NCBI GenBank assembly: GCA_028718805.1 | Contig: JAQUKY010000007.1 | Span: 18,176-82,175 of the forward strand | Length of the DNA: 64,000 nt | Source: Candidatus Nanoarchaeia archaeon | GTDB taxonomy: Archaea > Nanobdellota > Nanobdellia > Pacearchaeales > GW2011-AR1 | Direction of reading: 5' to 3' | Shown: piece by piece, positions 12,141-63,339 of the stretch | Position numbering within the stretch: position 1 is the first letter of the stretch | Layout: each line of letters begins with the position of its first letter | Notes under the pieces: generated by a model | Seen by the model: only the letters and a program-made list of their open reading frames with translations | Told to the model about the DNA's origin: nothing | The model's database searches: none | Program-made: the position numbers and the translations under genes

Positions 12141-12306
12141 AAATAAAAAGAAATCCACATCATTTATGATGTGGTGCTGATAATCGCTAATGCTGTGATT
12201 TAAACGCTTGTGGAAGCAGGTTCAATAAATTGAAGTCCACAGGGCAAAGCGGATAAGAGTAAAGATATAAGGAAGCCCACGCATTTATGCGTGGGAGGAT
12301 GTCACA
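12141..12306 (+). repeat. copy 1 of a ~165-nt structured intergenic repeat, carrying two 9-bp stem hairpins (CCACATCAT/ATGATGTGG and CCCACGCAT/ATGCGTGGG)
   Basis: Near-identical to the copies at 29313, 32069 and 63171. It has no coding capacity on either strand. Confidence 0.8.
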
Positions 12307-12441
12307 ATCGTTTATTGCATTACCAATATAACTTCTCCAAACAATTTAAAAACCTATTTCTGCTATTATAGAAAACTAAAGGTTAAATAAATAGGCTTCA
12401 AAAGGAGATTGAGGCCTTAAAGAACCTTGGTTCTTTAAGCT

Positions 12442-13371
12442 ATGAAACACAATTTAAAAATAACTGTTATTCTGATATTATTGTTTCTTATTACTCAGAT
12501 AATAGGGTTATTTGTTGTTAATTTTTATCAAAGTTCACAGATTCCATATGGAATGGAACCTCCATCAGATATTAACCCTCAAACTTCAATAATTTCAATA
12601 CTTTTTGCTTTTGCTTTGGCAATTACTTTATTTTTTATATTAACAAGGATAAATGCTGAAAAGTTTATCAGGCTTTGGTTTTTTGCAGTTACTGTAATAG
12701 CGATTGGTTTAACAATTAATTTTGTTATTATCTCTATTCTTAAAAATCCGCCAAACCCTTATGAATATCTGAGCATTATTGCTTTAATACTTGCAATACC
12801 TTTAGCATATTTTAAAATATTCAGAAAAAATATTTTGATTCATAATTTTACAGAGTTATTAATATACCCAGGAATTGCAGCTGTTTTTGTTCCTATCTTA
12901 AATGTTTTAGGGATAATCCTCCTTCTTTTGGCTATTTCTCTGTATGATATATGGGCAGTTTGGCATTCAAAATTTATGCAGAATATGGCAAAATATCAGA
13001 TTGATAAGTTAAAATTTTTCACAGGATTTTTTATTCCCTATGCTGGAAGTGAAATGAAAAATAAGATAAAATTATTAAAGCAGAAATATAAAAATAAATC
13101 TGGGAGAGTAAGGGAAGCAGCATTTGCAAAAGCAAAAATAAAAATTAATTTGGCTATTTTAGGCGGGGGGGACATTGTATTCCCGATAATCACAGCAGGA
13201 GTATTCTTTAAATATGCAGGATTAATTCCTGCATTGATAATAACAGTTTCAGCAACAATAGGTTTGTTATTCTTATTTATCTTAGCAAGAAAAGGTAAGT
13301 TTTATCCTGCAATGCCCTTTTTAACAATTGCAATGTATTTAGGAATGATGCTCAGCTGGCTGATATTTTGA
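12442..13371 (+). CDS. presenilin/signal-peptide-peptidase homologue (A22 intramembrane aspartyl protease)
   Basis: Polytopic membrane protein with the YD motif (LSLYDIW), the GxGD motif (LGGGDIVFP) and a PAL motif (IPALII) in the expected order. Confidence 0.7.
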   Translation: MKHNLKITVILILLFLITQIIGLFVVNFYQSSQIPYGMEPPSDINPQTSIISILFAFALAITLFFILTRINAEKFIRLWFFAVTVIAIGLTINFVIISILKNPPNPYEYLSIIALILAIPLAYFKIFRKNILIHNFTELLIYPGIAAVFVPILNVLGIILLLLAISLYDIWAVWHSKFMQNMAKYQIDKLKFFTGFFIPYAGSEMKNKIKLLKQKYKNKSGRVREAAFAKAKIKINLAILGGGDIVFPIITAGVFFKYAGLIPALIITVSATIGLLFLFILARKGKFYPAMPFLTIAMYLGMMLSWLIF

Positions 13372-13689
13372 ATATCCGCATTCTATTAAAACTCTGTCAA
13401 CTAAATCTTTTCCTTTTTGGGCATTTCTTAGTATTTTAGGATTAGCATATTTTAAATATTCTATATAGTCCTGTTCTATTAAAGGGGTTATAACATCTCT
13501 TGTAAATTGCCCCTCATTTTTAATTCCAACATTTTCTTTCAATTCTCGTCTCGGCAATTTCCCCCTAGAATAAAGCTCCATCAATGCTATGGCTCTGTAC
13601 ATTGTCAATCCTTCTTTTTTAAAAGCTCTTGCAATTTTTGTTCCTGTTTTTAGATATCTTAATGAATCTCTGACATTTATTTCTTTCAT
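13339..13689 (-). CDS. hypothetical protein, possibly a winged-helix DNA-binding protein
   Basis: ORF only, with a weak wHTH-like pattern. Confidence 0.3.
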   Translation of the reverse strand: MKEINVRDSLRYLKTGTKIARAFKKEGLTMYRAIALMELYSRGKLPRRELKENVGIKNEGQFTRDVITPLIEQDYIEYLKYANPKILRNAQKGKDLVDRVLIECGYSKYQPAEHHS

Positions 13690-13743
13690 TTTATGGAAAT
13701 TTTTTTAAAATTTACATGATTGAAAATTTCATAAATTTTCATT

Positions 13744-14130
13744 TTACGGATATTTAAAATCTCTGCCTGGTAGGAGAATCTCATTTCTCTTATGATGCTT
13801 TCTTGCCCGCATTTCCTCTTCTTTTCTTCTATTAAAATCATCCACAATCCATTGCAAGTCTCTTTTTTCGGGCAGTGGCCTGATTATTCCCAAAGGCAAA
13901 GGCAATTCTGTTGGGCTATCATTATTGATAGATGCCTGAGAGCAGTTCATATCATAGACTATTGAAGGCATAATATATGCATAGCCATTATCTTTATCAA
14001 TTTGTCTTAAAACCCCCCAAACAGAAGCTCCGTTGAAGGTGCTAAAACATTTAGGTTCGCCATTTATATGTGAATCCCATGGAGATTCTTGTAAATTAAA
14101 ATTTCCAAAGTTTCGGTTGTTGTCATCCAT
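13744..14130 (-). CDS. hypothetical protein
   Basis: ORF adjacent to the signal peptidase gene with a 2-nt gap, suggesting an operon. Confidence 0.3.
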   Translation of the reverse strand: MDDNNRNFGNFNLQESPWDSHINGEPKCFSTFNGASVWGVLRQIDKDNGYAYIMPSIVYDMNCSQASINNDSPTELPLPLGIIRPLPEKRDLQWIVDDFNRRKEEEMRARKHHKRNEILLPGRDFKYP

Positions 14131-14131
14131 T

Positions 14132-20564: not shown

Positions 20565-21014
20565 CTAGCCTTTATTCTCTTCAGCGTCTTTTGAGAATTG
20601 TGGCATTGCGTTAGGGTCTCTGATTTTTTTGTCGATTTCTTCTTGGCTAACCTTAAGGGAAGCAGCCAAATCAATTATATATTTTCCTTCTTCTAATTTG
20701 TAGATGAGAGGTCTTTTTTTAGAGAAAAGATTAACAATATCAATTTCAAATTTGCCAGGCCTTATTACTTTTATAGATTCTAAATCTAAGATAACAGGTT
20801 TTTCAGGTTCTTTTTCCAATCCAGTTATCTCCCTAATATCTCTTTCAATCTGGGTTTTATCAGATTTTTCTAATTCAACAATAGTATCTTTAACCTCTTC
20901 AGTAGGCATGTCTTTAATGTAGTAGAAAAAATGGCTTCCACAGCTGCACCCTTCTAATATTTCTTTGGCAGCATCAGGAAATATGTTCCCGCAATGAACG
21001 CATTGGTGAGGCAT
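20565..21014 (-). CDS. Zn-ribbon protein (archaeal DUF2072-like)
   Basis: CVHCGNIF...CSCGSHFF four-Cys ribbon at the N-terminus. Conserved neighbourhood with the GTPase below. Confidence 0.4.
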   Translation of the reverse strand: MPHQCVHCGNIFPDAAKEILEGCSCGSHFFYYIKDMPTEEVKDTIVELEKSDKTQIERDIREITGLEKEPEKPVILDLESIKVIRPGKFEIDIVNLFSKKRPLIYKLEEGKYIIDLAASLKVSQEEIDKKIRDPNAMPQFSKDAEENKG

Positions 21015-21162
21015 CTTATTATTTTAGTATCTTTCTTTTATGTTTAATTGAAAATAATGAGGAGACATTGGCATTTTTAAATTTTTAGGTATTTTATTAC
21101 CAAATTTTTGTTATTCTCCTATAAACAAACACATAGAATATATAAAGATTATTAGTCTAAAA

Positions 21163-21546
21163 CTATCTCATCATTACTTCTAATTTCTTGGGGTTTCTTT
21201 TCATCTCTTTTACAATTGTTGCAGGACCGATTATAGTAAGAGCATTCTGCTGTCCTGTAATAGCTTTTGCAATGCCAAATCTAAGTTTTTGTATAGCAGT
21301 GAGGTCATCTCCCTGTTCAATGACAGCCAACTCAACTCCCTTAAATCCCTTGATATTCCCAACCATAATCATTGTATCTTCTATTAATCTTGTTTCTTCT
21401 TCAGAACTAAGTCTTCCCTGCAAAACAACAACCTTGTTGCTTAGAATTATTTTCAATAGTTTCTTAATTCTCTCAACAGATTCTAGTCTTGCAATTTCTG
21501 AATAAGGCATAAAATGCAATGTCAATCCTTTTATCTTTTTTGCCAT
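21163..21546 (-). CDS. archaeal DUF2073-like protein
   Basis: Small conserved protein lying between the Zn-ribbon gene and the GTPase. Confidence 0.4.
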   Translation of the reverse strand: MAKKIKGLTLHFMPYSEIARLESVERIKKLLKIILSNKVVVLQGRLSSEEETRLIEDTMIMVGNIKGFKGVELAVIEQGDDLTAIQKLRFGIAKAITGQQNALTIIGPATIVKEMKRNPKKLEVMMR

Positions 21547-21729
21547 CTCTCACCCTTTTTTTTGTCTTTTACTCATTGTTGTAATGGAATATATACTTTT
21601 AAATGTTATTTATTTTATTTTTTGGTAATTTATTCAACGAATTTAAGTTGTTTTTGAGTTTTTATCAAGCTATTTTTCAGCAGCTTAATTTTCTCAATAT
21701 CATCTTATCTAGTTTTTGATATTACTGAT

Positions 21730-22371
21730 TTATGCTTGTTTTGCTAACCTAAACACAGACTCATAAAATTCATCCATGTTTTTTCCCTTTTTAGCAGATA
21801 TCGCCACCACATCATATTCTGGAAAAGCAGCCTCTATTTTTTTAATCTCTGCTTTTTTTAAATCAGATTTATTAGCAACAACCAAGACAGGTATTTTTCT
21901 TGCAACCAAGTTGCCAACTATAGTTATATTTACTTGTGAATAAGGGTTTTGAGTTGCATCTAAGACAACAATAACAGCATCCATATCATCTAGCCATTGA
22001 ATTGCTTCTATAACTCCCTTTGTTGCTTCTTTAGCTCTTTTTTGAGCCTGTTTCTTATTCATATGCATTTTAACAAAGTCTTCATAATCAATCTTTGTGG
22101 CAATTCCAGGAGTATCAACTAATTTAAATTTAAGGCTCTTTTCTTTATATTTGATTTCAACCTCTTCTTTAAACTGTACATGTCTTGTTTCATGAGGTAT
22201 ATTGCTTACCTTTCCTATTTCTTCTCCAGTCCAGTCTTTGCAAATTCTGTTCGCTAGAGTAGTTTTTCCAGCATTCGGAGGCCCATAAAAACCAAGCCTG
22301 ATTTGTTTTCTTTTTTTAAAGAAAAGGCCAAATAGCCTTCTTGTAAAATTCCTAAGTATTCTTATAGCCAT
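21730..22371 (-). CDS. small GTP-binding protein
   Basis: G1 motif GPPNAGKTT, G3 motif DTPGI and G4 motif NKSD. Confidence 0.7.
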   Translation of the reverse strand: MAIRILRNFTRRLFGLFFKKRKQIRLGFYGPPNAGKTTLANRICKDWTGEEIGKVSNIPHETRHVQFKEEVEIKYKEKSLKFKLVDTPGIATKIDYEDFVKMHMNKKQAQKRAKEATKGVIEAIQWLDDMDAVIVVLDATQNPYSQVNITIVGNLVARKIPVLVVANKSDLKKAEIKKIEAAFPEYDVVAISAKKGKNMDEFYESVFRLAKQA

Positions 22372-25435: not shown

Positions 25436-26329
25436 TTATCTCTGCTTTTTCTTCTTTCTTTTCTTTTTAGAAATCAAATAAAGGTAATAAGTAACAACTA
25501 AAATTACAATAACTGCGATTACATTTATCCATGTGAAAAAATTTAACTTTGTTATGTCTGTGCAAGGCTTTGTTTCGGGATCAACAGCACAATTCATATC
25601 TTCATGGGGGTTTATGACTGTCCAATTCCATATAATCATTCCATTAGGTTGAGTGCACTGGCTGTCATCTACAGTTATAGCATATTGGCAGAATCCAAAA
25701 GTATAATTATCTCTGTCATTACAATCCTTTATTTTGCTTGCATCTGCCAGGCATTTTTCTTCTGTTGCATTCCATACACAACTGCAGGAAGTAAAATTAG
25801 AGCAAATTTTGATTCCGACTTCCCAGGGCTTGTCAACAGCCTTATTGCACCACCCCTCTCCGTATACACTGCTGCTTTCAATGCTTTCTATTGCTACATC
25901 AGGGACATAATTTTCACATTCATCTTCTCCATAAGAAGAACAGCTGGTTACATTTGAAATAAGGCACTTGTATTTATCATCATCAATTACATTAGGCAAT
26001 AATTGAACTGATTCTGAAAGCTGACCTGTGATTAACTGGCAGGTATTAAATGTAGAGCCTGTTTTTGGGCAGCAAGCACCCTCCCCAACAAAATCATAAC
26101 CACTCCCAAAATCCCTGCAGTCAAAAACAGGATCTGCCCCAACAGTAGCATAAGAGTTATTTGTAATTGTATCTACCCATTTAGTATGGTTATATTCTGA
26201 AGGGCAAAAAATACCCTCTTTAATAAAAACTGTGGAGCTGGTTTCTCCAAAATAATCTCCAGCAGCCAAAACTGAGATTAGGAAAATAAACAGGAAAAAT
26301 CCTAATCCAAACAATATTCCTTTTTCCAT
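25436..26329 (-). CDS. Cys-rich secreted protein with a C-terminal TM and poly-Lys tail
   Basis: Signal peptide, about 30 Cys residues, TM helix, then KKKRKKKKQR. Confidence 0.5.
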   Translation of the reverse strand: MEKGILFGLGFFLFIFLISVLAAGDYFGETSSTVFIKEGIFCPSEYNHTKWVDTITNNSYATVGADPVFDCRDFGSGYDFVGEGACCPKTGSTFNTCQLITGQLSESVQLLPNVIDDDKYKCLISNVTSCSSYGEDECENYVPDVAIESIESSSVYGEGWCNKAVDKPWEVGIKICSNFTSCSCVWNATEEKCLADASKIKDCNDRDNYTFGFCQYAITVDDSQCTQPNGMIIWNWTVINPHEDMNCAVDPETKPCTDITKLNFFTWINVIAVIVILVVTYYLYLISKKKRKKKKQR

Positions 26330-48429: not shown

Positions 48430-48708
48430 TTATTTAACTTCATTAAAGAAGTAGTTTGGGTCTGTCATAGTTATGCTATATCCACAACTACATTCAACTA
48501 CATATTGCGGCGGAAGTGATTCAAGAGTGTTTGTAACTTTAAGACCGCTGTGTCTCTTGTCAAATAAACATGCTTCAGGGATTTCTCCATCTGCTTGAAG
48601 CCTTGTTATTATACCATCCACTTCGGCTTCTAATTGAAAAACTGGTTTTTTTTCACTTTCACTGCCTTCTGGCATAGTATTTTTAAAAACTTTTCCTGTT
48701 AGTTTCAT
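48430..48708 (-). CDS. hypothetical small protein with a possible Zn ribbon
   Basis: ORF with Cys pairs CLFDKRH ... CSCGYS. Confidence 0.3.
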   Translation of the reverse strand: MKLTGKVFKNTMPEGSESEKKPVFQLEAEVDGIITRLQADGEIPEACLFDKRHSGLKVTNTLESLPPQYVVECSCGYSITMTDPNYFFNEVK

Positions 48709-48772
48709 TTTAATTTCCTCCTTTCATCTTTATTAATAAAAGGATAATTTCTTCTTTTATCTAATGCAAATT

Positions 48773-49018
48773 TTAACCCCTGATAATCTTCACACTTTTA
48801 ATTAGCTTAGCTTTATCGCCTATGGTTTTGATTAACCTCTCAATTTCATCAGGCCTGAACTCTATTAACCCAGAAGTTGAGTTATTCCTAAATGCTATTT
48901 CAAATTTTTCATTTTTAGGATTCACCATATCCTCATTAATCATAATCTCTTCAATATGGACCTGATTTTTTACTTTTCTTGGCCCATTTCCTGTTTTGTA
49001 TTTTGTTTTTATTATCAT
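48773..49018 (-). CDS. hypothetical small protein
   Basis: ORF whose end sits against the start of the giant gene upstream. Confidence 0.3.
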   Translation of the reverse strand: MIIKTKYKTGNGPRKVKNQVHIEEIMINEDMVNPKNEKFEIAFRNNSTSGLIEFRPDEIERLIKTIGDKAKLIKSVKIIRG

Positions 49019-52000: not shown

Positions 52001-52464
52001 TGAGAATTTAATGCTTTGCATCCTGTGAGATAGCCTATGTTATCTATATTATTATAAACAGTCAAGTCTCCTAATAAAAATCCTTCTGTTATTAAATAAT
52101 TATTGCTTGAAATTGTTATTTTGCTATTTGTGGTAACCCCCTGATATTTTGCAAGTCCTGCATTTTTAGCAGCCTCCTGGCTTAGAAAAATAGTTTTATG
52201 ATTTTTATTATCAAATATTCCAGATGTGCTTGTTACATCTTCTCCAACAATGATTATATCATATAAATTAGGATTAAACAGGATATCATCTAATAAGCTG
52301 ACTGTATGCCCATTTTCTTCTAAAATATTTATTATAGTAGTTTCGTCAGCATTAATAGGATAAGGTGTTTTGACAATGTAACCTATATTTGCAGCAGATA
52401 CAAAACAAACAACAAAAATAAGAAACAAAAATGCAGATAAAACTAAAAATGATTTCTTAAACAC
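49015..52464 (-). CDS. giant (1149 aa) acidic surface protein
   Basis: Signal peptide. Three tandem ~40-aa Asp-rich DGYGxGxLLDVCSG...GYSDIDGDCND repeats. VNDAP motifs in a cadherin/Big-like region. C-terminal TM followed by a KK tail. Confidence 0.55.
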   Translation of the reverse strand: MFKKSFLVLSAFLFLIFVVCFVSAANIGYIVKTPYPINADETTIINILEENGHTVSLLDDILFNPNLYDIIIVGEDVTSTSGIFDNKNHKTIFLSQEAAKNAGLAKYQGVTTNSKITISSNNYLITEGFLLGDLTVYNNIDNIGYLTGCKALNSQSLAYRSDTANSAILLLEKNALLLNDGNCLKKNVSISERNLFFGLSKASLWNDDANTLFLNSIEWILYGEDKDEDGYHYDDDCNDNNNQTWQNLPGYADNDGDGYGSGSLLDVCSGENLLEGYSEIDGDCNDSNKYKWQLLEGYLDSDKDGYGAGGLLQVCSGYSLPAGYSDIGGDCNDADNNKWQLFEGYVDNDEDGYGTGSLLDVCSGDELIAGYSDIDGDCDDSAASCNLDCDLLKYLDSDTDGYGNPLLSQRACDAPENYVNDNIDCNDSNNEINPDAEEMQYDMTDSNCDNAIEWISEINNIEWNEDETKSFDLSSYIWNPGSSELIYYIYDTSEDKYISVDIMENGIFNFSSDKDWHENDWVIFGVHDEAKDIDLISNNVTLVVNSVNDAPRFIGNIGDINFDEDTNKTDYFDLNDYFYDADEDELTFDVTGNNHINVIIDNGLASFIPDADWWGSEIVSFSASDGTETRNSNEVNITVNDMNESPEFALIDCQLDIDEDTEYTCILNASDFENDSIEFTVGDKNNLNCNINGNELTYSSELNYNGEANCNLIASDANGYDEYLLNVNITPVNDAPKIRSYSPLRTPKLMENTDYEFSINVFDVDGDELDITWFVDGNESGSGKDYIFNNTKGNYEIKAILTDNEFEDEHIWNVFVGDISDFTCQEVDGYITRENQICLGDLLGTSDSNLITCCSIAGQPKFSSVDRCENLSNKLKFEIENPDENDEFIIGDIITGEIRVENDLNEDLDFDVNVYLYDITNDEEIENYEDSISADEGENENLDFEITIPDDLDEKDEYALFVKVIDEDENNCNQDYIPINIEREKYDVIIQKADIDSKATCGGYFNAKIKVKNIGSKDEDVYLLVENPDLNISEKTEKFELEKYDEDDTETKTLSINIPENAEEGNYEIEITAYFGGRDDSVTKTLTVECKQIEENISEIEKISLQTGNTEAKTGNTANKARVIIPILTILLALTAILFILKGGFNNKK

Positions 52465-53125
52465 GCTTTTTCACTTTCTTTTTTAGTTTAGTTTTCACAA
52501 CCTTTTCTTTTTCAATTTTTTCATCTCCATTCTTAATTTTTTTCTTGGGTCTATAATAAATAATCAGCACAACAATAAAAACTAAAGCAACAATCAAAGT
52601 TGTTCCCAATGCAATCATATTTTTGTCTAATTTTCCAATAACATTTCCAGTAATCCCTGTTGAAGAGCTATTGGTATGGTCATTAGAATTGCCAGTATTG
52701 GTATCTGCGTTAGTATCCTCTCCGTCATTAACGTCTTCCCCGCTTGCAACAACAATAATAGTAGAGCTTAATCCAGCCCCGTTCTTTCCATCAACAGGTG
52801 TGAATTGGACATTTATCTTGCTTTCTGTTTCTCCTGCTTTTTTTACCTTAATTGTGAAAAAAGCTTTTTTCTCCTCTCCTGCATTTAAGGTAAAATTATC
52901 ATCTTTAATTTTTATATCCTCTGCTAAATCTCCTGTAGCGAACAATTTTATTTTTACTGCAACATCATTTGTATTCTTAACAGCAATTGACCTTTCAATA
53001 GTATCCCCAGTTTTGGCATCATCCAGAATCATTCTAGCATTTCCAATACTTGCGGTTATGGCAAGAACACTGCCAATAAGCATAAGAGTCATCAATAAGC
53101 CAATAAGCACAAATTTTTTGTCCAT
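52457..53125 (-). CDS. membrane-anchored surface protein
   Basis: Signal peptide, beta-rich domain, STGITGNVIG motif, TM, Lys-rich tail. Confidence 0.45.
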   Translation of the reverse strand: MDKKFVLIGLLMTLMLIGSVLAITASIGNARMILDDAKTGDTIERSIAVKNTNDVAVKIKLFATGDLAEDIKIKDDNFTLNAGEEKKAFFTIKVKKAGETESKINVQFTPVDGKNGAGLSSTIIVVASGEDVNDGEDTNADTNTGNSNDHTNSSSTGITGNVIGKLDKNMIALGTTLIVALVFIVVLIIYYRPKKKIKNGDEKIEKEKVVKTKLKKKVKKRV

Positions 53126-53303
53126 TTTTTAGTCAATCTTTACAGGATTACTACGAAGTTACAGCATTTTTTTAATATTTAAACATTATTATGTTAAGAA
53201 GTATATTAACTAAAATAAGTTATAAGTTGTCCTTATAATCGACGATAAAATAATGATTAACAACAAAACTAAATAATAAGAAGCAATTAACATTACCAGA
53301 TTT

Positions 53304-56300
53304 TTAGATAGGCTCTCCCCAGAAGTATATATTCCCATCTTCGAAATTTCCATTGCATGGTTCTGGCATATTCAGTTTGAATGTCAGTGACATTTCAGAG
53401 CCTGGAGTCAATACATTACCAACATTGTTTGCAATATGTGTACTGTATCCTTCTGTACCGATTATCTCCTTAGCTTCTTTTATGTCATCTCCATATGGAA
53501 TTTCAGAATAACCTTCATCATCTATGTTATAAGGACCTGCTCCACCAACATTTGCTGTTGAGTAGTATCCGTTTGTAGCAAAGTATCTGAAGTTTTTCAG
53601 GTCAAGAACATTGCTTGTCGGGCACATTGCACCTGAATGTGATGAATCAAAGAAGTTTGTACCTGCGATATACATTTCAAGTCTAACTCCAGAGTTTTCA
53701 TCAGCATCATTTTCAATAGTTATTGTTGAATAAGCAGTTGTTCCTGGCATAATAATATCATCGCCAAACGACAAATCTCCCTCAATATTTAGGTTAATAA
53801 GAGGGTTAAAAAACCAGTATTCATTTTCATCCATTGTTCCTGATAATCCGCTTAAGTCATCTGCTTCAACAGTCACCCAGTATTGTCCATACATGCTCTC
53901 AGCTGTTTCTACATTTAAAGTACATTCATAATAACCAGCTACCTGGGACAGATCTCTGCCTGTTAAATTCTCTTCTCCTATCCTTGCATTACAGCTTTCA
54001 TCAACTTCTGTTGCTGTTCCGATAAAATGGCAATTAGATTCTATATCATTTCCTTCTCCTTGTTCATCCCCAATTGTAACAAAAACATCCCCCATCTTTT
54101 CAATACCATTCTTATCCATTACAAGGACTTTCCATTTTATCTGCTCTCCTTCAAAAGCATAGTTCTGTTGTCTTTCAATAAGCTCTTCTCCTGGTGTTGT
54201 TCCGGGTTGCCATTGGTCATCATAAACAACTCTGCTGTCGCACATCCAGACTATGGGAGGGAAACCTTCTTTTTTGCATTTAGAAGAGCATCCGTCTTTG
54301 CTTACATTATTTCCGTCATCGCACTGCTCTCCAGAATCTAAAATATTATCTCCACATTTAGGCAATATACAATTATTTCTACATTCATCAAAATTATTTA
54401 AATTCCCATCGTCACATTGTTCAGAAATCTGGTTTACAATTCCATCTCCACAATAGGGTTCAATGCATGATCCATTAATACAGGCATATCCGCATATCTG
54501 AAATTCTTTTTCTGCATGAGAGCTGTTGAAACAGCTTCCTGATGAACATCCCTTGTCATAACATGTTCTTAGCCTTGTCTTATTTTTTCCATCGCAAAAA
54601 TATTCTCCCCAATCATCACACCCATCTTCTCCACACTCTTGAATATTTTCTGTTATATTTTCAAAAAAACATTCTCCATCTGAGCATCCAGGGATTAAAT
54701 GATTTCTTACAACATCTTCCTCTTTGCAGTAATTATCAGAATAACTTTCATTCCCGCAATTCTTTACAAAAGTTTCATTTACAAAAGAATTATTAAAACA
54801 TCCTCCTAATTCACATCCTCTGTCATAACAAGTCTGGTTTTTGTAAACATCAATGCCTTTGCAATACTGGTTTCCAAAATTATCGCAGCTGTCATTTCCA
54901 CAATTCTCAAATAATTGGGAAGTTATATTAAACATGCAATTTCCGTCTTTACAGAAATAATCAGTTAGGTTTCTATAAACATTATTGTTTATACAATAAT
55001 TATCAGAATATGAATCATTAGGGCAATCTCCGTCTGCACAGCATTCTTTTATAATTATTTTTCTCTTAGCATAATTATCACTCATATTACAATCTGTTTC
55101 ATTAATCTTCTCGGCATAAACACTGATGTTGTGTTCTCCAAGCAAACTTGAAGTGCTTATATTAATAGATTTTGAATGTTCATGATCTATTGGAGAATTA
55201 TAATCTGCAATAATAGTTTCATCTATTTTCACAATAACATGTATATTATTTGTTGTGTTAGCTATTTTATTATCTATATAATATTTTATAGTATAATTTT
55301 TCCCCTTTATCAGTTCAACAGGGTCATGCAGCCAGGTTCCATTTGTAAGCCCTATAGCAATTCCTGTTTCAAATGAGTTTCCGTAAGAATATCTTATTCC
55401 AACATCATGTTCGCATCCCGTACAATTTCCATTCTTACATCCAAATTCACAAACACTCACATTTTCATTTTGATAATCAGGAGTAGTATAACATGATGCA
55501 TCAGAACATCCTCTTAAAATATCTGTCTTGTTTCTCCAGACCTCTTTTCCAATGCAGTAATAGTTCTCTGTTCCATATGAATTTTCACCGCAATCTTCAA
55601 AAAGGCTTTTGTTTACAAAAGAATTATTAAAACATCCTCCTAATTCACATCCTCTGTCATAGCAAGTCTGGTTTTTATAAACATCATTATTTTCACAATA
55701 GTTTATAGGGGCATCACAGCTGTCATTTCCGCAATCCTGAACAAGGATTTTGCTTATATTAAACAAGCATTCTCCATCATCACAGAAATAATCAGTTAAG
55801 TTCCAGTAAATGTCATTGTTATAACAGTATTCATCAGAATAAGAGTCATTAAGGCAGTCGCCATCATCACAGCATTCATCTACACAGCTTCCGTCTTCAC
55901 ATCCATAAGTGCAGTTTTCAACAAATTCATTTTTATAATCAGGAGTGGTAAAGCATGATGTACCAGAACATCCTCTTAAAACATCTGTTTTGTTTCTCCA
56001 TACTTCTTTTCCAATGCAGTATTTATTCCATGTTCCTTCTTCATCTTCTCCACATTCATCACTCTTTTCACTTGTAAAATCATGAGAATGAGTGCAGCTT
56101 CCTGCCTCGCATCCTCTTAATTCCTCAGTGATATTTTTCCATACATCATTATCATAGCAATATTCTACTTCTTCATGTGAATCTTCCCCGCAATTCTGGA
56201 CAAATGTATCATTTAAAATAGAATTATTAAAGCAAACTCCTGTGCCTAATACACATCCTCTGTCATAGCAAGTTTGCTTTGTCCATAAATCATTCTCTTT

Positions 56301-57680
56301 GCAATAATCTTCCCATTCTGTACAGCTGTCTTTCCCGCAATCTTGTTTTATTTTTAATTCAGTTGAATTAGTGCAATAAGAGTCTGCTGTTCCAGGATTT
56401 TCACATTCAAATTCATTCCAGAAATCCCAGATATTTTTAGTGCATACACAGCGGTCCTGATTTACCCATCCATCTTCTCCGCAATCTGAATTCTCATCGC
56501 AGGTTATTGTCATGCAGTCTGCATCACAGGTTGAAGTGTTAGGAGGTTCGCACTCTTCATCATCATTTACAATTCCATCTCCGCATTCAGATTCTGTGCA
56601 GTTTCCATCAACGCACTCATAGTCGCATGTTGTTATAAATTCATTTTTATAATCCTCATCTTCAAAACATCCTTCTTCATTGCATCCTCTTAAAACATCT
56701 GTCTTGTTTTTCCATACCTCTTTTCCTATGCAGTATTTATTCCATGCTCCTTCTGAATTGCTTCCGCATTCGTCAGACAATTCAGGAACCACATCAAAAA
56801 GGCAATTTCCATCATCACAGAAATAATCAGTTAAATTCCAGTAAACATCATTGTTATAACAGTATTCATCAGAATGAAAATCTTTAGGACAATCAGTGTC
56901 ATTGCAGCATTCTGGTTCTTCAATGCATATGCAGGCATTGCAAGTATAGCCTTCATCGCAGTCATCATTTATTTCACATTCCTCATCACCTTCTTTAACT
57001 CCATCACCACATTCAGGCTCTTGTGTCTCATTATATCCGCAGAAAATAATATAATCTATTTCTTTTCCGTTTATTTTCCCTAAAATTCCGCTTGTTCCAT
57101 TAACAGTTACAAATTTCAATCCACCTTTTGCAATAATCCCATCAGCTCCGCTTGTTCCAGCATTCCAGGTTGCATTGCTGCAGCATCCTGTAACTGAACT
57201 TCCTGGATATTTTTGCTCTTTTAAAACCCAGCTGCCCCATCCACAGCATGTTCCAAAGCATTCCCATTTAGCAACACCAAAATCAAAACCATAATCTCTG
57301 CATTCTTTATCAATATTTATGCCGCATCCGCTCCAGCACATAGTAGAAAGGTCTGGAGAAGAATCATGATGTGATGAGCCAGAAGAATGTGAAGAGGATG
57401 AACTTGAAGAAGAGCTTGTGATTATATTATCATCCATTATATTGTTCTCGTCTAAGAGAGTATTAACATAAGCATTTTCAGTTGAACTTGTTGTTGCAAT
57501 ATTCCTTAAAACATCAGTTTTATCTCCTGTTGATATTGGAATTACAAGATAAACTGCAATAATCACAAGATTTACAATTAAAAATAATATTAGGACAGTT
57601 AATAATACCCCTTTGCTGTTATTTGCGTTATAATCCCCTTTTGATGGCATATTTTTTGTTATATGTTTACTAGCCATCAC
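53304..57680 (-). CDS. giant (1458 aa) Cys-rich modular surface protein with an N-terminal signal anchor
   Basis: N-terminal TM, then a poly-Ser stretch, then at least 8 repeats of a ~45-aa Cys module (CCxDxDCPxDxYSDxYCxNNDVYxNLTDYFCxDGNC) interleaved with CGxNSxGxWNKYCIGKEVWxNKTDxLRGC modules. Confidence 0.55.
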   Translation of the reverse strand: MMASKHITKNMPSKGDYNANNSKGVLLTVLILFLIVNLVIIAVYLVIPISTGDKTDVLRNIATTSSTENAYVNTLLDENNIMDDNIITSSSSSSSSSHSSGSSHHDSSPDLSTMCWSGCGINIDKECRDYGFDFGVAKWECFGTCCGWGSWVLKEQKYPGSSVTGCCSNATWNAGTSGADGIIAKGGLKFVTVNGTSGILGKINGKEIDYIIFCGYNETQEPECGDGVKEGDEECEINDDCDEGYTCNACICIEEPECCNDTDCPKDFHSDEYCYNNDVYWNLTDYFCDDGNCLFDVVPELSDECGSNSEGAWNKYCIGKEVWKNKTDVLRGCNEEGCFEDEDYKNEFITTCDYECVDGNCTESECGDGIVNDDEECEPPNTSTCDADCMTITCDENSDCGEDGWVNQDRCVCTKNIWDFWNEFECENPGTADSYCTNSTELKIKQDCGKDSCTEWEDYCKENDLWTKQTCYDRGCVLGTGVCFNNSILNDTFVQNCGEDSHEEVEYCYDNDVWKNITEELRGCEAGSCTHSHDFTSEKSDECGEDEEGTWNKYCIGKEVWRNKTDVLRGCSGTSCFTTPDYKNEFVENCTYGCEDGSCVDECCDDGDCLNDSYSDEYCYNNDIYWNLTDYFCDDGECLFNISKILVQDCGNDSCDAPINYCENNDVYKNQTCYDRGCELGGCFNNSFVNKSLFEDCGENSYGTENYYCIGKEVWRNKTDILRGCSDASCYTTPDYQNENVSVCEFGCKNGNCTGCEHDVGIRYSYGNSFETGIAIGLTNGTWLHDPVELIKGKNYTIKYYIDNKIANTTNNIHVIVKIDETIIADYNSPIDHEHSKSINISTSSLLGEHNISVYAEKINETDCNMSDNYAKRKIIIKECCADGDCPNDSYSDNYCINNNVYRNLTDYFCKDGNCMFNITSQLFENCGNDSCDNFGNQYCKGIDVYKNQTCYDRGCELGGCFNNSFVNETFVKNCGNESYSDNYCKEEDVVRNHLIPGCSDGECFFENITENIQECGEDGCDDWGEYFCDGKNKTRLRTCYDKGCSSGSCFNSSHAEKEFQICGYACINGSCIEPYCGDGIVNQISEQCDDGNLNNFDECRNNCILPKCGDNILDSGEQCDDGNNVSKDGCSSKCKKEGFPPIVWMCDSRVVYDDQWQPGTTPGEELIERQQNYAFEGEQIKWKVLVMDKNGIEKMGDVFVTIGDEQGEGNDIESNCHFIGTATEVDESCNARIGEENLTGRDLSQVAGYYECTLNVETAESMYGQYWVTVEADDLSGLSGTMDENEYWFFNPLINLNIEGDLSFGDDIIMPGTTAYSTITIENDADENSGVRLEMYIAGTNFFDSSHSGAMCPTSNVLDLKNFRYFATNGYYSTANVGGAGPYNIDDEGYSEIPYGDDIKEAKEIIGTEGYSTHIANNVGNVLTPGSEMSLTFKLNMPEPCNGNFEDGNIYFWGEPI

Positions 57681-58533: not shown

Positions 58534-59991
58534 CTAGCCCTTTCTGACGTTATAAGAAATTAATGCTAATATTGCAATTATAATAACAAATCCTAATGCA
58601 ACAGGTATTTTGTTATTCTTAGCAAATCCAATAGCGTTTCCAGTAATTCCAGATAAACTGCTTTGGTCCTGGGTTGTTAATTCATTTGTTTCAATTTTAT
58701 TTTCAGTTTCTTTTGAGCTTGAGCTTGAAGTCTTTCCTAAGATAACTTCTGAAATTCCTTTGACTGTAACTTTTGCCTTGCTGCCTGTTATGCTTTCTAA
58801 TTTAACTGATAAGTCATAGGTATTATCACCATTAACATCTACTTTCTTTTGATCTCCTGCATTAAGAGTAAATGTCTGAGGTGTGCTTGATACTGTTATT
58901 GAAGCATTTGTTTTTGTCATGCTGTTTACAGTTACATAGTGAGTTTGGTTTGCAATTTTAAAACTGAATTTTGCTCCTTTTGTCATGTCTTTTGTTGCTC
59001 CATCATTTAATTGAGTCTGAGTTAAAATATAAACAGAGCCTCCTCCGCCCCCGCCTCCACCTCCTCCACCTCCTCCGCCACCCCCGCCTCCGCCGCCATT
59101 ATTATTTCCTCCATTATCAGCAGCAGGTTCACTTATTGTTAAATTTCTTGATTCAGATAAAATAGTGCTTGTCCCCTTTGTACATTCTATTTTCCAGGCG
59201 TGATTTCCAACAGGAACAGATTGTGTTATTGTATTGTCAGCATTTATGCTTGTTATTGCTGTTAATTGATCATTTAGATTTAAATTACACTGGCTTATTC
59301 CTGTTAAATTCCCAGAAATACTGAATCCAAAAGCTATGTCCTGTTGTCCTGTAGCAGAATAGGCATTTGCAGGGCTTGTTAAAGTTATTGTATTTCCAGT
59401 ATCACCTTGTCCGCTTTCTGTGATTGTGAAACTTCTAGAATCTGAAAATATTACATTTCCCCCAGAACCGGATTTTTGCGTACATTTTATCTTCCATATA
59501 TAAATTCCAGGTATTGCATTATAATATAATTTTTGAGTAGTACTGCCTACTGGAGCATTTTTTGTCGCAACACTATCCCCATTAACAAGTAACTCGCATT
59601 TTTGAACTTCAGAGCTTTTTGTAACTTTAAATGTGAATTCTAGTTTTATAGGATCTTCAGATTCTACTGAGAATTTATCCAAAGGATTGAATAATGTTAT
59701 TACAGGAAGGTCTACGGGAGGAGGCAGTGGTTCTTCATATAAATAAGTGCATTCCCCGATTTCATTGCATGAGTTAATGCCTGTAGGGCAATAAACTTCA
59801 TTAGAAACTTCATTAACGCATAACTGGCATTTTGTTGTATCACATGTGTAATCTGATATCTCTTCATTACACTCAGAAAAATGTATTATCTCTCCTTGCC
59901 TCAAACAGATTAATGATTGTGCGCTAACAATGCTAAACACGCTTAATAATAAAAACAATCCAGTAATACCTAGTGTTATTTCTTTTTTCAT
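58534..59991 (-). CDS. secreted surface protein with a 22-residue poly-Gly linker and a C-terminal SGITGNAIG motif plus TM anchor
   Basis: The start is taken as the internal Met of [24 protein letters not shown], a signal peptide. The upstream 56 codons of the track ORF carry no signal. Confidence 0.5.
   Translation of the reverse strand: [485 protein letters not shown]
59041..59097 (-). repeat. GC-rich GGN codon run encoding Gly x22
   Basis: A ~57-nt tccDccNcc low-complexity tract inside the CDS. Local GC is above 70% in a ~30% GC genome. Confidence 0.7.
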
Positions 59992-60149
59992 ATCATTACT
60001 TCCCAGTAATTCTTTATAAACAAATTTGTAATCCAAAATCAGTAATGAAAAATCTATAATATGAAAATATATAATAGTAAATAAGAAATTATTTGTTACT
60101 TCTTTTGACAAAGATTGAATTAAAAGAAATCTGCATACTTCAGTATAAC

Positions 60150-60220
60150 TGATAATCAATAATGCTGTAATTTAAGCGATTTAGCAACAGAAGATTAAGC
60201 GGGTGAGTTTATATGTTATT
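60150..60220 (+). repeat. degenerate partial relic of the 165-nt repeat family
   Basis: ctgataatcaataatgctgtaatttaagcgatttagcaac matches ctgataatcgctaatgctgtgatttaaacgcttgtggaag at 33 of 40 positions. This is followed by aagcgggtgagtttatatg, which resembles aagcggataagagtaaagatata. Confidence 0.5.
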
Positions 60221-60249
60221 AGAAAGTTAACAAATTTAGTAGTAGAATG

Positions 60250-60477
60250 TTAAACTCTTTCTTCAATGATCCGGGAAATAGGTTTCCCTGTTTTTTCCTT
60301 GAGTTTTTTTAATTTGTTTATAGTTTCAACAGAGAGAGTTACATCTATTCTCTTCCTTTGGAAAGGCAATTCATGAGTTTTATCATAATTTTCAAGAGCT
60401 TCAAATACATCTTTGTATTTTTTCAATATTTTTTTTGTTTGTGTCTGTTTCATTTTATACAACTTTTTAATCTCCAT
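60250..60477 (-). CDS. ribbon-helix-helix protein, candidate antitoxin partner of Doc
   Basis: C-terminal KRIDVTLSVETINKLKKLKEKTGKPISRIIEE has an RHH pattern. Overlaps the Doc gene by 28 nt. Confidence 0.4.
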   Translation of the reverse strand: MEIKKLYKMKQTQTKKILKKYKDVFEALENYDKTHELPFQRKRIDVTLSVETINKLKKLKEKTGKPISRIIEERV

Positions 60478-60791
60478 TCAATTTGTCTGATATTAGTTAT
60501 GTTTTTACTTGCAATAGATAAGACATGATGAACAATTAATTCCCTGTCTATTTGTTTTTGGTTTTCTTCTGCGAATTTTAAAGCAAAAAATGTTGCAGTT
60601 CTCTTGTTTCCATCTGAAAATGGATGATCAACAAGTATAGCTCTCCATAAATAAGCTAATTTCTTATAATCTCCAAGCTTTTCATTTTCCTGCATTTCAA
60701 TAGCAAAATCAATGCTTGAATCGCTTCTTAAGTTTCCTCCAAATCCATCATTTATTCTTAGTAGATCTTCCTTACTAATTTTCATACACAT
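60450..60791 (-). CDS. doc: Doc (death-on-curing) / Fic-family toxin
   Basis: HPFSDGNKRTA matches the Doc variant of the Fic motif, HxFx(D/N)GNKR. Length 113 aa. Confidence 0.6.
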   Translation of the reverse strand: MCMKISKEDLLRINDGFGGNLRSDSSIDFAIEMQENEKLGDYKKLAYLWRAILVDHPFSDGNKRTATFFALKFAEENQKQIDRELIVHHVLSIASKNITNIRQIEWRLKSCIK

Positions 60792-61303: not shown

Positions 61304-61490
61304 GATAGCCTTTATCTCAAACTTCTGATAATATTGGCATAAGTCGTCAGGTTTATTTTAAGGAAGTCAGCAAGTGAAGTTAAAATAAATAAGCCCAAAA
61401 CAGCAATCAGCAAAATGATTACAACCCTGATACTGTTTGATTTGTGTTTCATCTTTTTATTCTCTTGTTTTTAATATTCATCTTCCTTTT

Positions 61491-61811
61491 TTAAGGCCAG
61501 TGATTATGAGCAAATCCTTCATAAAATCTTCTTGGATCCTGGGGGCATGTTCTTTGGACACCCATAAGAAAGTCATATGTTTCAGCATGAGGTTCAGAAG
61601 CATCAATTCTTTTGCCAACCATTATTTCCATAGAACTCCAGCCATTATTTTCATTTTGTAAAACCAAAGCAGCTTCTAATCTTTGTCTTCTTGTTGGATT
61701 TTCTAAATCAACCTTAATATTATGTTTTTTAACAGCCCGTTCTAATAATCCTCTTACATAACCATCAACTGGCTGAACTTCATCTAATGGGTTTATTATT
61801 TGTTTATTCAT
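61491..61811 (-). CDS. hypothetical protein
   Basis: ORF only. Confidence 0.3.
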   Translation of the reverse strand: MNKQIINPLDEVQPVDGYVRGLLERAVKKHNIKVDLENPTRRQRLEAALVLQNENNGWSSMEIMVGKRIDASEPHAETYDFLMGVQRTCPQDPRRFYEGFAHNHWP

Positions 61812-62197
61812 TTTTTGTGTTTTTTTACCTTTTTCTGAACAGTATAATCAAGCTTTTTGCACAGCGCGCTATGTTCGGTCTTAAATTCATTGAGATATTT
61901 TAGTAGATCTCTCGCTACGCTATGGTCCCCATAATTTTTTCTTATTTGTCTTATCATTTTTTCAGTTTCATTACCGGTGGTATAAGATGAATCAAGAAGA
62001 TCAGTTATACTGCTTCTTCCATAGCTTGAAGGATGTTCTGTTATATTTTTAATTTTCGTTGTTGCCATTCTAATTCCAAAATACATCATGCCGGCATTAC
62101 ATCCTAATGAAAGCGCCTTAGAAACTTCTGCTTTAGCTAAAGCGTTAGTTAAATCTTTATGAGAATAAGTTTTTTTAGTGTATGTTTTCTTTGCCAT
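61808..62197 (-). CDS. hypothetical basic protein
   Basis: ORF overlapping the downstream gene by 4 nt. Confidence 0.3.
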   Translation of the reverse strand: MAKKTYTKKTYSHKDLTNALAKAEVSKALSLGCNAGMMYFGIRMATTKIKNITEHPSSYGRSSITDLLDSSYTTGNETEKMIRQIRKNYGDHSVARDLLKYLNEFKTEHSALCKKLDYTVQKKVKKHKK

Positions 62198-62221
62198 TTT
62201 TAATCTTTTAGAAATAATTTA

Positions 62222-62962
62222 TTAAATACTTTCCCTCTCTGTAATCGCCTTTCTCTTTCTGATAAACCTGACAATCAAGGATAAAACTAATATCCCAACA
62301 ATAAATACAATAATTACAACCCAGCCTGTTCCTAATGTTCCGACAACAGCCCCTGTAATTCTTGATACTCCCCCAAGGGTTGTAGTCTGGTTATTCCCTG
62401 TTAAAGTTTGTGTTTCATTGTTTGAACTTTCATCTCCGTTTCCGGCATTCTGGCTTGGTTCACCCGTTATATTATTATTTATGAAGATCTTGCAGTCTCT
62501 TGGGCATGTAGTTACGCTCTCTCCCGAGTCGCATTTATCATTTCCGCATAAATAATATCTATTGTTTCCTCCGTTATTATGATTAGTAGTTTGTTTGGGC
62601 TTAATGGCTAGGTTTATGATTGAAACAAATCCTTCTGCGCAATCACCCCTATCATTGCATTCAATTACAACCCCTGAATCAGAGCCATACAGGCTTCCTT
62701 TTGCACCCTCTGCATTAACATTAGCACCTTCTCCACACTCATCAACATCAAACCTTACTGCATATGTTCCGTCGTCAAGGCTGTCTGTCTCTAAGACATG
62801 AGAATTGCATGTTACTGTAACATCAGCATCTGAAATAATATCAGAATATTCAGAATTGTATATTTTTCCTGCAACAAGAGTCTGTGCAGATGTGATACTG
62901 ATTAAAAATACAAATAAAAATAATCCGGCAATCAATAATCCTGATGTCTTTGCGGTTTTCAT
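62222..62962 (-). CDS. secreted Cys-containing surface protein with a C-terminal RITGAVVG motif, TM and basic tail
   Basis: Signal peptide. Shares the C-terminal motif family with the 52457 and 58534 proteins. Confidence 0.45.
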   Translation of the reverse strand: MKTAKTSGLLIAGLFLFVFLISITSAQTLVAGKIYNSEYSDIISDADVTVTCNSHVLETDSLDDGTYAVRFDVDECGEGANVNAEGAKGSLYGSDSGVVIECNDRGDCAEGFVSIINLAIKPKQTTNHNNGGNNRYYLCGNDKCDSGESVTTCPRDCKIFINNNITGEPSQNAGNGDESSNNETQTLTGNNQTTTLGGVSRITGAVVGTLGTGWVVIIVFIVGILVLSLIVRFIRKRKAITERESI

Positions 62963-63170
62963 TTTTTGTTTTGTTTATCGTTCCTTTTCAGGCCTCAAAA
63001 CCTCTAAACCACCTCAGAACACCCCAACACCTCTCTTTTTTTAACACGTTTGTCCCCTAGAAGAATCTTCTCCTAGTATAATAAAAATATGAATAAATGC
63101 CCATATTTAAACCTTACTGTTGTATTAATTTTAAAGTAACAAATTTTAATATTTATTTGTTACAAATATT

Positions 63171-63339
63171 AAATAAAAAGAAATCCACATCATTTATGAT
63201 GTGGTGCTGATAATCGCTAATGCTGTGATTTAAACGCTTGTGGAAGCAGGTTCAATAAATTGAAGTCCACAGGGCAAAGCGGCGGATAAGAGTAAAGATA
63301 TAAGGAAGCCCACGCATTTATGCGTGGGAGGATGTCACA
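63171..63339 (+). repeat. copy 4 of the ~165-nt structured repeat (3-nt gcg insertion)
   Basis: Near-identical to copies 1 to 3. Confidence 0.8.

Follow-up and report, generated by a model that had tools for sequence, protein, structure and literature searches.

IS200/IS605 is the most abundant insertion sequence (IS) family in archaea (PMC13343696). Palindrome-associated transposable elements (PATEs), which are non-autonomous derivatives of this type, were described in the haloarchaeon Haloquadratum walsbyi, with the homogeneous family HqIRS46 as one example (PMC3119063). They are non-coding, too short to encode a transposase, and have neither terminal inverted repeats (TIRs) nor target-site duplications (TSDs). 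Similar palindromes are found near both ends, farther from the 5′ end than from the 3′ end, a targeting sequence of 4-5 nt is present at the 5′ side, and families with more than 90% identity occur beside heterogeneous, decayed ones. Here we describe a 163-nt intergenic element that resembles the H. walsbyi PATEs in all of these respects. It was found in 64,000 nt of Candidatus Nanoarchaeia archaeon (GenBank assembly GCA_028718805.1, contig JAQUKY010000007.1, positions 18,176 to 82,175 of the forward strand); this whole stretch is referred to as the window. Four copies lie in the window and a fifth lies just beside it. They are near-identical and sharply bounded, have the end anatomy of IS200/IS605 elements, are accompanied by decayed family members and are absent from the related genomes examined. 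In our opinion, the element is probably a PATE. PATEs as a kind are already known; we found no earlier description of them for the Pacearchaeota (DPANN), to which this organism belongs according to the relatives of its FttA.

Several differences from the H. walsbyi PATEs were also observed. There is no sequence similarity between them and the element. H. walsbyi is a haloarchaeon rich in IS605-type transposons, whereas the present host is a streamlined DPANN Pacearchaeote, and in the sequence studied we saw neither a related IS605/IS1341 element nor a transposase. In addition, the element carries a host-like promoter module and a central hairpin. Gene-less PATE-like elements that have retained only the left and right ends of the IS200/IS605 type, with clade-specific target-adjacent and transposon-encoded motifs (TAM/TEM) and presumed mobilisation in trans, are also known from Geobacillus stearothermophilus (ISGst families; Meers et al. 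2023, PMC10055086). However, in Geobacillus the same ends are found on resident tnpA, tnpB and iscB elements, and the gene-less elements often encode omega-RNAs, for which there are expression data (PMC10055086). The third point of comparison is IS608 of Helicobacter pylori (PMC3201880, PMC5934647). Like the element, it has subterminal hairpins that are read on one strand, 4-nt guides 5′ of the hairpin feet, and an A at guide position 3. IS608 is bacterial and autonomous, with tnpA and tnpB (PMC5934647), whereas the element has 163 nt and no gene and is known from sequence only.

Pacearchaeota genomes are generally said to be streamlined and to hold little mobile DNA. The element points to recent single-strand transposition, of the IS200/IS605 type, in a Pacearchaeote, and its recent activity would have taken place in a very small genome.

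Copies and boundaries of the element

The 92-nt core of the element matched the window four times on the plus strand with 0 mismatches, where shuffled sequences would be expected to give 0 matches. These are the four near-identical plus-strand copies that the initial annotation of the window had reported. The fifth copy (c5) was found at 3074-3241 of contig JAQTOG010000023 (L009), 6 kb left of the window in the same metagenome-assembled genome (MAG), GCA_028713455.1. All statements about this genome refer to 73 kb, i.e. the window and the adjoining sequence of the same MAG. According to the five-copy alignment, the copies in the window were placed as follows.

12143-12305, plus strand: copy 1 (c1), the element proper, 163 nt between two predicted cleavage points
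29315-29477, plus strand: copy 2 (c2)
32071-32233, plus strand: copy 3 (c3)
63173-63338, plus strand: copy 4 (c4), 166 nt with a GCG insertion

The block that was invariant among the copies, TTAAAT…GTCACA, was 168 nt long (171 nt in c4) and occupied 12139-12306, 29311-29478, 32067-32234 and 63169-63339 of the plus strand. The five copies were 99-100% identical and all on one strand of the 73 kb, at a density of about one copy per 15 kb. The sole variable base was G in c1 and c4 and A in c2, c3 and c5, and the sole length change was the insertion of GCG in c4, in agreement with the single G/A change and single 3-nt insertion noted before. The insertion is a triplet duplication, AAAGCGGCGGATAAG (window 63275-63283), inside the promoter-like module of the element.

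Identity ended abruptly on both sides, at TTAA on the left and at TCAC plus one A on the right. TTAA preceded and A followed the element in all five copies. The flanks were unrelated to each other, except on the right side of c2 and c3.

29478-29490 (c2), identical to 32234-32246 (c3), plus strand: shared 13-nt right flank ATGTATGAAAATC, not beside c1, c4 or c5

The ends formerly assigned to these two copies, 29493 and 32249, had taken in about 13-15 nt of flanking sequence, including this shared segment. Since c2, c3 and c5 lie with their flanks inside three separate NCBI contigs of GCA_028713455.1 and a Logan contig breaks off inside c4, the repeat is not an assembly artefact. The NCBI contigs break at another repeat, namely the 143-nt 5′ end shared by two pilin-like genes. 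At c4 the element coincides with an assembly break, and such repeats are strain-level markers. A repeat finder listed the copies as one family (D1) with spacings of 17.2, 2.8 and 31.1 kb. A repeat of 163 nt at these spacings is not an array of clustered regularly interspaced short palindromic repeats, as had been recognized at the outset.

We found no open reading frame (ORF) inside the element; the longest frame extends into the flank, and its translation had no homologue among 5.8 billion proteins. The earlier statement that no peptide is encoded was therefore confirmed. The test for TIRs was negative: the first 10, 20 and 30 nt agreed with the reverse complement of the last 10, 20 and 30 nt at 3, 5 and 8 positions, and the best 14-nt terminal complementarity at any offset was 6. 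A search for TSDs, which the initial annotation had proposed as a check, was also negative. The longest direct repeats abutting the ends were 2-4 nt, varied in position and sequence between copies and were not consistent. As the element has no TIR, no TSD, no ORF and no protein homologue, it shows the defining features of PATEs (PMC3119063).

It had first been suggested that the copies and their relics were left by a recently active element similar to a miniature inverted-repeat transposable element (MITE). We also favour a mobile element with relics, because the ends are sharp, the copies are near-identical, none of the relatives has the element, and c5 sits within what would otherwise be an operon spacer of about 33 nt. 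A MITE in the strict sense was rejected for lack of TIRs and TSDs, and the anatomy is of the IS200/IS605 type instead. It is also conceivable, although we think it quite unlikely, that the element belongs to another mobile or duplicative kind: a MITE, a doublet of repetitive extragenic palindromes (REPIN) moved by a REP-associated tyrosine transposase (RAYT), a fragment of the rolling-circle (IS91/Helitron-like) type, or remnants of segmental duplication. Dispersed, near-identical, non-coding copies with unrelated flanks would suit such elements, and from the flank common to c2 and c3 it is clear that one copy or more was duplicated together with its flank. Helitrons resemble the element in that their subterminal 3′ hairpin is situated about 10 nt from the end. 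Other features do not agree with the individual members of this group. REPs and REPINs are recognized by short palindromes that are paired in inverted orientation and headed by a conserved 5′ tetranucleotide; the palindromes of the element are 120 nt apart, in direct orientation, separated by 100 nt of unrelated interior and without a GTAG-type head. The ends are not 5′-TC…CTRR-3′ and the target is not A/T (the slash marks the insertion point), as would be the case for a Helitron. Segmental duplication would not yield five copies with identical, base-sharp ends and unrelated flanks.

Ends, guide bases and cleavage motifs

On the plus strand the layout of the element is TTAA / ATAAAAAG AAAT (CCACATCA TTTA TGATGTGG) TG CTGATAATCGCTAATGC TGTG ATTTAAACGCTT (central hairpin GTGGAAGCAGGTTCAATAAATTGAAGTCCAC) AGGGC AAAGCGGATAAGAGTAAAGATATAAGG AAG (CCCACGCA TTTA TGCGTGGG) AGGATG TCAC / A, in which slashes mark the predicted cleavage points and parentheses the hairpins. 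In c1 the parts are as follows.

12139-12142, plus strand: TTAA, predicted target and left cleavage motif (C_L, TAM); also at 29311, 32067 and 63169 and at 3074 of L009
12151-12174, plus strand: left end, with guide G_L AAAT (12151-12154) and hairpin CCACATCA-TTTA-TGATGTGG (12155-12174)
12180-12271, plus strand: interior cargo, with the box ATAATCGCTAATGC, the TATA-like TTTAAACGCTTG, the long central hairpin (12205-12251) and the 3′ promoter-like module GCAAAGCGGATAAGAGTAAAGATATAAGG
12272-12305, plus strand: right end, with guide G_R GAAG (12272-12275), hairpin CCCACGCA-TTTA-TGCGTGGG (12276-12295), linker AGGATG and TCAC (12302-12305)

The foot of the left hairpin is 12 nt from the left cleavage point and 16 nt from the start of TTAA. 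On the right, AG follows the hairpin foot directly. The last base of TCAC is exactly 10 nt 3′ of this foot, and identity continues for just one base more. The two hairpins per copy noted earlier are both present, although with other dimensions: the palindromes CCACATCAT-TT-ATGATGTGG and CCCACGCAT-TT-ATGCGTGGG are in practice 8-bp stems with TTTA loops, and not 9-bp stems with the loops given at that time. These two 20-nt terminal palindromes are alike in the foot (CCAC/GTGG), the closing CA/TG and the TTTA loop. As the loop reads TTTA in the same (plus) sense in both, their orientation is direct and not inverted.

In IS608, the cleavage motifs are not read by TnpA but by the four bases 5′ of each hairpin foot (PMC3201880, PMC5934647). 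G_L AAAG pairs with C_L TTAC, and G_R GAAT pairs with the right motif, C_R TCAA; the pairs A+16:T-3 and A+17:T-4 are formed, one A per guide flips into the protein, and T-4 contacts A-2 (PMC3201880, PMC5934647). The right foot is directly followed by A and G, and the distance from it to the end of C_R, in the 3′ direction, is 10 nt (PMC3201880). We built a guide rule from statements printed in these two papers only. In this rule, guide base 1 pairs with motif base 2 (g1:c2), g2 pairs with c1, and g3 and c3 are both A; the pair g4:c4 was deduced here from both IS608 ends. The element boundaries had been fixed from the copy alignment before the rule was applied.

Applied to AAAT the rule gives TTAA, and applied to GAAG it gives TCAC. 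Both motifs are present exactly at the boundaries set by the alignment, with all three pairs at both ends and with A as g3 and c3. For comparison, among the other perfect hairpins of the window (stem of at least 6 bp, both strands, about 318 calls), 2% have the three right-end pairs and 0.3% have the three pairs plus A at g3 and c3. The chance of TTAA at the left boundary, based on composition, was about 1.3%. From the hairpin null set and this composition-based probability, the joint match of guides and motifs is unlikely by chance (order 10^-4). The motifs of IS608 and of the element share the form T-N-A-N (TTAC/TCAA vs TTAA/TCAC) and the pairs g1:c2, g2:c1 and g4:c4. Similarly, the right motif ends 10 nt past the foot in both, AG follows the right foot, and insertion occurs, or would occur, 3′ of the left motif without duplication. 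In the IS200/IS605 family the +1 base reportedly influences target choice (PMC5934647), which agrees with the invariant A behind TCAC. Alternatively, the boundary motifs may be the pentanucleotides TTAAA and TCACA.

If the element is a PATE, it would move by single-strand "peel-and-paste" transposition, which would require the plus (top) strand in single-stranded form. A Y1 HUH transposase (TnpA), supplied in trans, would bind the two subterminal hairpins, and the four bases 5′ of each foot would serve as DNA guides, AAAT with TTAA and GAAG with TCAC. Cuts 3′ of TTAA and 3′ of TCAC would release the 163-nt element as a single-stranded circle, in which the expected junction of right end and left end (RE-LE) is …AGGATGTCAC/ATAAAAAGAAATCC…, that is, …GGGAGGATGTCAC/ATAAAAAGAAATCCAC…. 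The circle would then re-enter 3′ of another TTAA, with A following in all the cases seen, and would leave no TIR and no target duplication. We infer each of these biochemical steps, and the existence of a cognate TnpA, from the anatomy of the ends. The pairs of guides with TTAA and TCAC make a concrete biochemical prediction, and they hint at a possible TnpB/omega-RNA system with TTAA as TAM in the community.

A number of observations weigh against this interpretation. Neither a TnpA nor a TnpB gene turned up in the 73 kb (Pfam, gene tables) or, with crude regular expressions for the TnpA (HUH/Y1) and TnpB motifs, in the loci of the relatives. The 73 kb also yielded no transposase, integrase or reverse transcriptase. 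Scans of the GTDB representatives and of IMG/VR revealed no parent IS with matching ends. The case for mobility is indirect, and no empty site, excision junction or insertion polymorphism was seen. The hairpins are perfect palindromes, whereas those of IS608 are described as imperfect, and the left linker is 12 nt long as compared with 19 nt in IS608 (the right linker is 10 nt in both). A clean TnpA event does not predict the 13 nt that c2 and c3 share past TCAC. These 13 nt and the 99% identical 143-nt 5′ ends of the neighbouring pilin-like genes mean that at least one of the two copies must have brought its flank along, either through recombination or because the right end was cut aberrantly. 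The shared flank shows that c2 and c3 are not independent clean insertions; it could reflect flank transduction or recombination. The interior, and the hairpin-less relatives near FttA and T2SSF, look like host promoters, which leaves room for a regulatory role. Finally, all copies have one orientation, yet gene orientation and GC skew switch near 12 kb. IS608 insertion is reportedly biased to the lagging-strand template. If the switch reflects the direction of replication, the copies to its right would be on the wrong template strand, although this argument is weak in archaea.

We also considered whether the copies are a multicopy small-RNA gene, as had been suggested. In that case each copy would encode a structured, trans-acting RNA of about 100-160 nt with three hairpins. 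Both strands of the element folded better than shuffled sequences as RNA (z = -3.5 and -3.9), and TATA-like boxes occur inside it. PATEs elsewhere often encode omega-RNAs (PMC10055086), and a transcript that serves TnpB and ends in the right flank would be compatible with a PATE. However, the fold signal came almost wholly from the three palindromes, for which a role in DNA is an equal explanation; the z score of the single-stranded DNA fold was -5.1. The copies are identical, which makes covariation unmeasurable, and diverged members lose hairpin 2 and the central hairpin rather than compensate. The element is not conserved in any relative. Rfam 15, in which curated transposon-associated RNAs may be included, gave 0 matches over the window at the gathering score, and c1 with 100 nt on either side had, at E ≤ 10, two noise matches (E = 3.6 and 7.6). 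The small-RNA suggestion thus gained no support, and we regard it as very unlikely.

Some other identities were tried and rejected. No tRNA or transfer-messenger RNA was detected in the window. C/D-box small RNAs have a different box spacing. For attC sites or integron cassettes, the copies are dispersed and an integrase is missing; for the template repeat of a diversity-generating retroelement, a reverse transcriptase is missing and the copies are identical and non-coding. Archaeal dif sites, origin recognition box (ORB) sites and a bulge-helix-bulge (BHB) intron were considered and dropped.

Family members, relatives and the promoter-like interior

A family profile search (nhmmer) of the window returned only known members. 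Besides the near-identical copies these are four diverged or partial sequences.

60115-60253, plus strand: diverged full-length member, left end TTGA/ATTAAAAG-AAAT and tail AGAATG-TTAA recognisable
11312-11440, plus strand: decayed copy that starts directly after the TTAA holding the NUDIX stop codon and fills a 136-nt convergent spacer
8639-8785, plus strand: core-only relative without hairpins, upstream of FttA (8782)
37713-37844, minus strand: core-only relative without hairpins, upstream of the T2SSF-like pilus gene 36825-37718(-)

Three of them had been noted as relics before. All three are real, at about 60115-60253, 11312-11440 and 8639-8785, but they are longer than was thought, and the fourth (about 37713-37844, minus strand) had been missed. 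In the member at 60115-60253, hairpin 1 is swapped for a weak one, hairpin 2 is decayed and the central hairpin is missing. Its G_R is AAAG and its right motif TTAA, so that g1:c2 is A:T where the young copies have G:C, a compensatory change. Over 56 nt it is 87% identical to the metagenome contig L004. This contig and L003 carry decayed copies of the 60115 type, and the L004 copy starts right after a TTAA stop. TTAA thus immediately precedes the relics at 11312 and in L004 as well, and TTGA precedes the one at 60115. A Doc (Fic/DOC) toxin and ribbon-helix-helix (RHH) antitoxin pair lies at 60250-60791 (minus strand), and the antitoxin stop overlaps the right-end TTAA of the 60115-60253 member. 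The two core-only relatives are either very old copies or host promoters of like design.

Outside this genome, young copies were not found; they were seen in one genome from one sample. The core pattern had 0 matches in 185,579 GTDB representative genomes. Both element and core are absent from 80 Pacearchaeota loci around FttA (529 kb, FttA 69-87% identical), and the homologous pilin-like loci of other Nanoarchaeia (L011, L170-L175) have no element downstream. Among 241 M metagenome records at JGI, the core pattern matched four times, namely the decayed copies in L003 and L004 and chance-like matches in L002 and L005. In IMG/VR, the core pattern gave a single chance match inside a gene, and scans with the hairpins, the left end and the right end gave no parent IS but one match in a giant-virus MAG (uninspected), one chance match and 75 low-complexity matches (uninspected). 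BLASTN against plasmid and phage records gave no match.

The gene order proteasome-FttA-(NUDIX-p189)-SPP is widely conserved, SPP being a presenilin-type signal-peptide peptidase. The relatives without the element share 65-88% protein identity with the present genome and have shorter syntenic spacers; none of them offers a base-exact empty site. Between the convergent NUDIX and p189 genes, the spacer measures about 22 nt in the syntenic relative L022, a Pacearchaeote, as compared with 136 nt in the window, where it holds the 11312 relic. The spacer upstream of FttA is 285 nt in the window and about 50 nt in L022 and most relatives. Just past c1 comes the SPP promoter, CAAACAATTTAAAAAC, which is conserved and intact. 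At about 6075-6110 of L022, the p189-SPP spacer has a different structured insert, the imperfect palindrome CTTGAGTGGCTTTCGCCAACTCAAG followed by T7. It seems that this spacer is a recurrent landing or regulatory site.

The interior of the element looks like a promoter. From the upstream regions in the window, the genome promoter consensus is about AAAGC-TTTAAATA, situated 22-25 nt before many start codons. There is also a locus motif, CTCATCTGCAAAGC(G/T)GAAAAAGAGTGAAATTAYWGAC, which occurs 13-150 nt upstream of at least six pilus or surface genes, often after GCTTAA.

25377 (plus), 26377 (minus), 28433 (plus), 32733 (minus), 37856 (minus) and 39845 (minus): sites of the locus motif

This motif is probably a locus-specific promoter or regulator site; it occurred once, with one mismatch, in the 529 kb of FttA regions of the relatives. 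The 3′ module GCAAAGCGGATAAGAGTAAAGATATAAGG is about 80% similar to it. A similarity of about 80% was likewise seen between the module and sequences that precede the start codons of 32254-32685(-), 36825-37718(-), 25436-26329(-) and 8782-10671(+) by 25-60 nt. The kinship that had been claimed between the 3′ third of the element and the promoter regions of pilus and surface genes was therefore borne out. Moreover, the distance from the TATA-like box of the 3′ module to the ATG in the hairpin-2 loop equals that from real boxes to real starts. The short ORFs that follow this ATG have 7-14 codons and differ between copies. In reverse, TTTAAACGCTTG reads CAAGCG-TTTAAAT, which is like the genome BRE/TATA (B recognition element and TATA box) consensus and points left. 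Most simply, the interior is the promoter region of a parent IS that was left after gene loss. Core deletion as a route to PATEs was described by Dyall-Smith et al. 2011 (PMC3119063).

We also weighed a host regulatory cassette, i.e. an intergenic promoter with hairpins that act as terminators, RNA stabilisers or insulators, like REPs or bacterial interspersed mosaic elements (BIMEs). Such a cassette would spread by recombination and owe its uniformity to gene conversion or selection. The 3′ third is about 80% similar to the motif CTCATCTGCAAAGCGGAAAAAGAGTGAAATTATAGAC, found 13-40 nt upstream of at least six pilus-locus genes, and hairpin-less relatives lie at promoter distance from FttA, T2SSF and one gene of L003. 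Four of the five copies are 2-47 nt from a stop codon, and the minus strand has a T-run after hairpin 1. In addition, the extra flank of c2 and c3, together with the identical 5′ ends of their upstream genes, shows that recombination or conversion operates here. Such a cassette, however, leaves unexplained why identity ends at TTAA and TCAC and why these motifs can be predicted from the bases 5′ of the hairpins. For the most part the copies have no co-oriented downstream gene, and c2-c5 face convergent or antisense genes. Absence from every related genome examined, including syntenic loci, would be unexpected for a conserved device. To our knowledge, hairpins are not needed for archaeal termination, which also counts against this explanation. 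A model with divergent promoters only was rejected, as the gene arrangement does not fit. On balance, a host regulatory cassette is unlikely. The related proposal of a portable promoter or leader cassette holds insofar as the cargo resembles pilin-gene promoters, but it gives no account of how the copies spread.

If the element is a PATE, its interior may still fire outward, and this cargo may influence gene expression; any such promoter activity is inferred from the similarities above. A rightward transcript, with its start predicted about 22-25 nt downstream of AAAGATATAAGG, may then leave via the right end. The FttA and T2SSF promoters, of an essential and a pilus gene, adjoin decayed family members; either such elements supplied these promoters, or they acquired copies of them. 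The Correia elements of Neisseria are likewise short repeats, scattered between genes, by which promoter-like sequence and hairpins can come to lie next to genes. They move by a different route, and their inverted termini and TA duplication have no counterpart in the element.

A bolder combination can be imagined, which we consider distinctly unlikely. The element would be a mobile, outward-firing copy of a pilin-type promoter in an ultra-small symbiotic archaeon without a resident transposase. It would be moved by the TnpA of a virus, a plasmid or the host cell and used for transcription rewiring, as a guide RNA for TnpB and for swapping pilin bodies. In that event, transcription would be expected to run in the sense direction toward SPP and in the antisense direction into RtcB and the surface-protein genes, and the element would supply a guide RNA for TnpB in trans with TTAA as TAM. 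The element could be a homology anchor for swapping pilin-like bodies, because c2 and c3 and the identical 143-nt 5′ ends bracket two different bodies.

Genomic setting and neighbouring genes

The window is archaeal, with 29-36% G+C. Among its genes are FttA/aCPSF1, RtcB and archease, SPP and proteasome subunits, together with a type IV pilus-like locus that comprises an intein-bearing T2SSE gene, two T2SSF genes and pilin-like genes. It further encodes large Cys-rich surface proteins, OapB/OapC-like proteins and the Doc/RHH toxin-antitoxin pair.

Each copy of the element has its own setting. Copy c1 is flanked by two divergent genes, 11452-12021(-) and 12442-13371(+); the latter encodes SPP, and c1 precedes its conserved promoter. 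The TTAA of c2 starts 2 nt past the stop of a pilin-like gene, 28512-29309(+), and c2 separates this gene from the convergent RtcB gene. Copy c3 is downstream of a paralogue of this pilin-like gene, 31572-32021(+), and the stop codon of 32254-32685(-) is 19 nt away. Copy c4 has a minus-strand gene on either side and is separated by 7 nt from the stop codon of one of them, 63347-63937(-). Copy c5 nearly fills the gap between two co-oriented genes; without c5, this gap would be about 33 nt, with an intact AGGAGG Shine-Dalgarno sequence before the downstream start.

The two pilin-like genes beside c2 and c3 (265 and 149 aa) contain a 143-nt stretch that is 99% identical, at 28465-28607 and 31525-31667 (repeat family D10). 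The stretch comprises the promoter and the first 32 codons. The gene bodies differ, and both genes end in the element plus the 13 nt. The RtcB-archease operon is located between them. From this arrangement, it looks as if a surface-protein gene had undergone gene conversion or a replacement of the cassette type.

Near 12-16 kb, gene orientation and cumulative GC skew switch, with the genes converging there, which is unlike an origin. OapC- and OapB-like origin-associated proteins are encoded at 20565-22371(-). The adjoining GTPase gene is OapA-like by position only, and no Orc1/Cdc6 gene was found in the window. In the pilus locus, the T2SSE/archaeal pilus ATPase gene, 39996-43028(-), has an intein with a LAGLIDADG homing-endonuclease domain (Pfam matches).

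The region 46735-57680(-) encodes very large Cys-rich repeat surface proteins (DUF4215, Big_9, cadherin-like). A paralogue search with a Cys-rich surface protein recovered, from this organism, only the cluster of the query itself. Repeats within and between these genes have 72-87% nucleotide identity (families D2-D8 and D11-D15). Two surface or unknown proteins contain poly-Gly or Gly/Ser runs, at 59039-59113 and 63438-63557, where the plus strand is C-rich (family D9).

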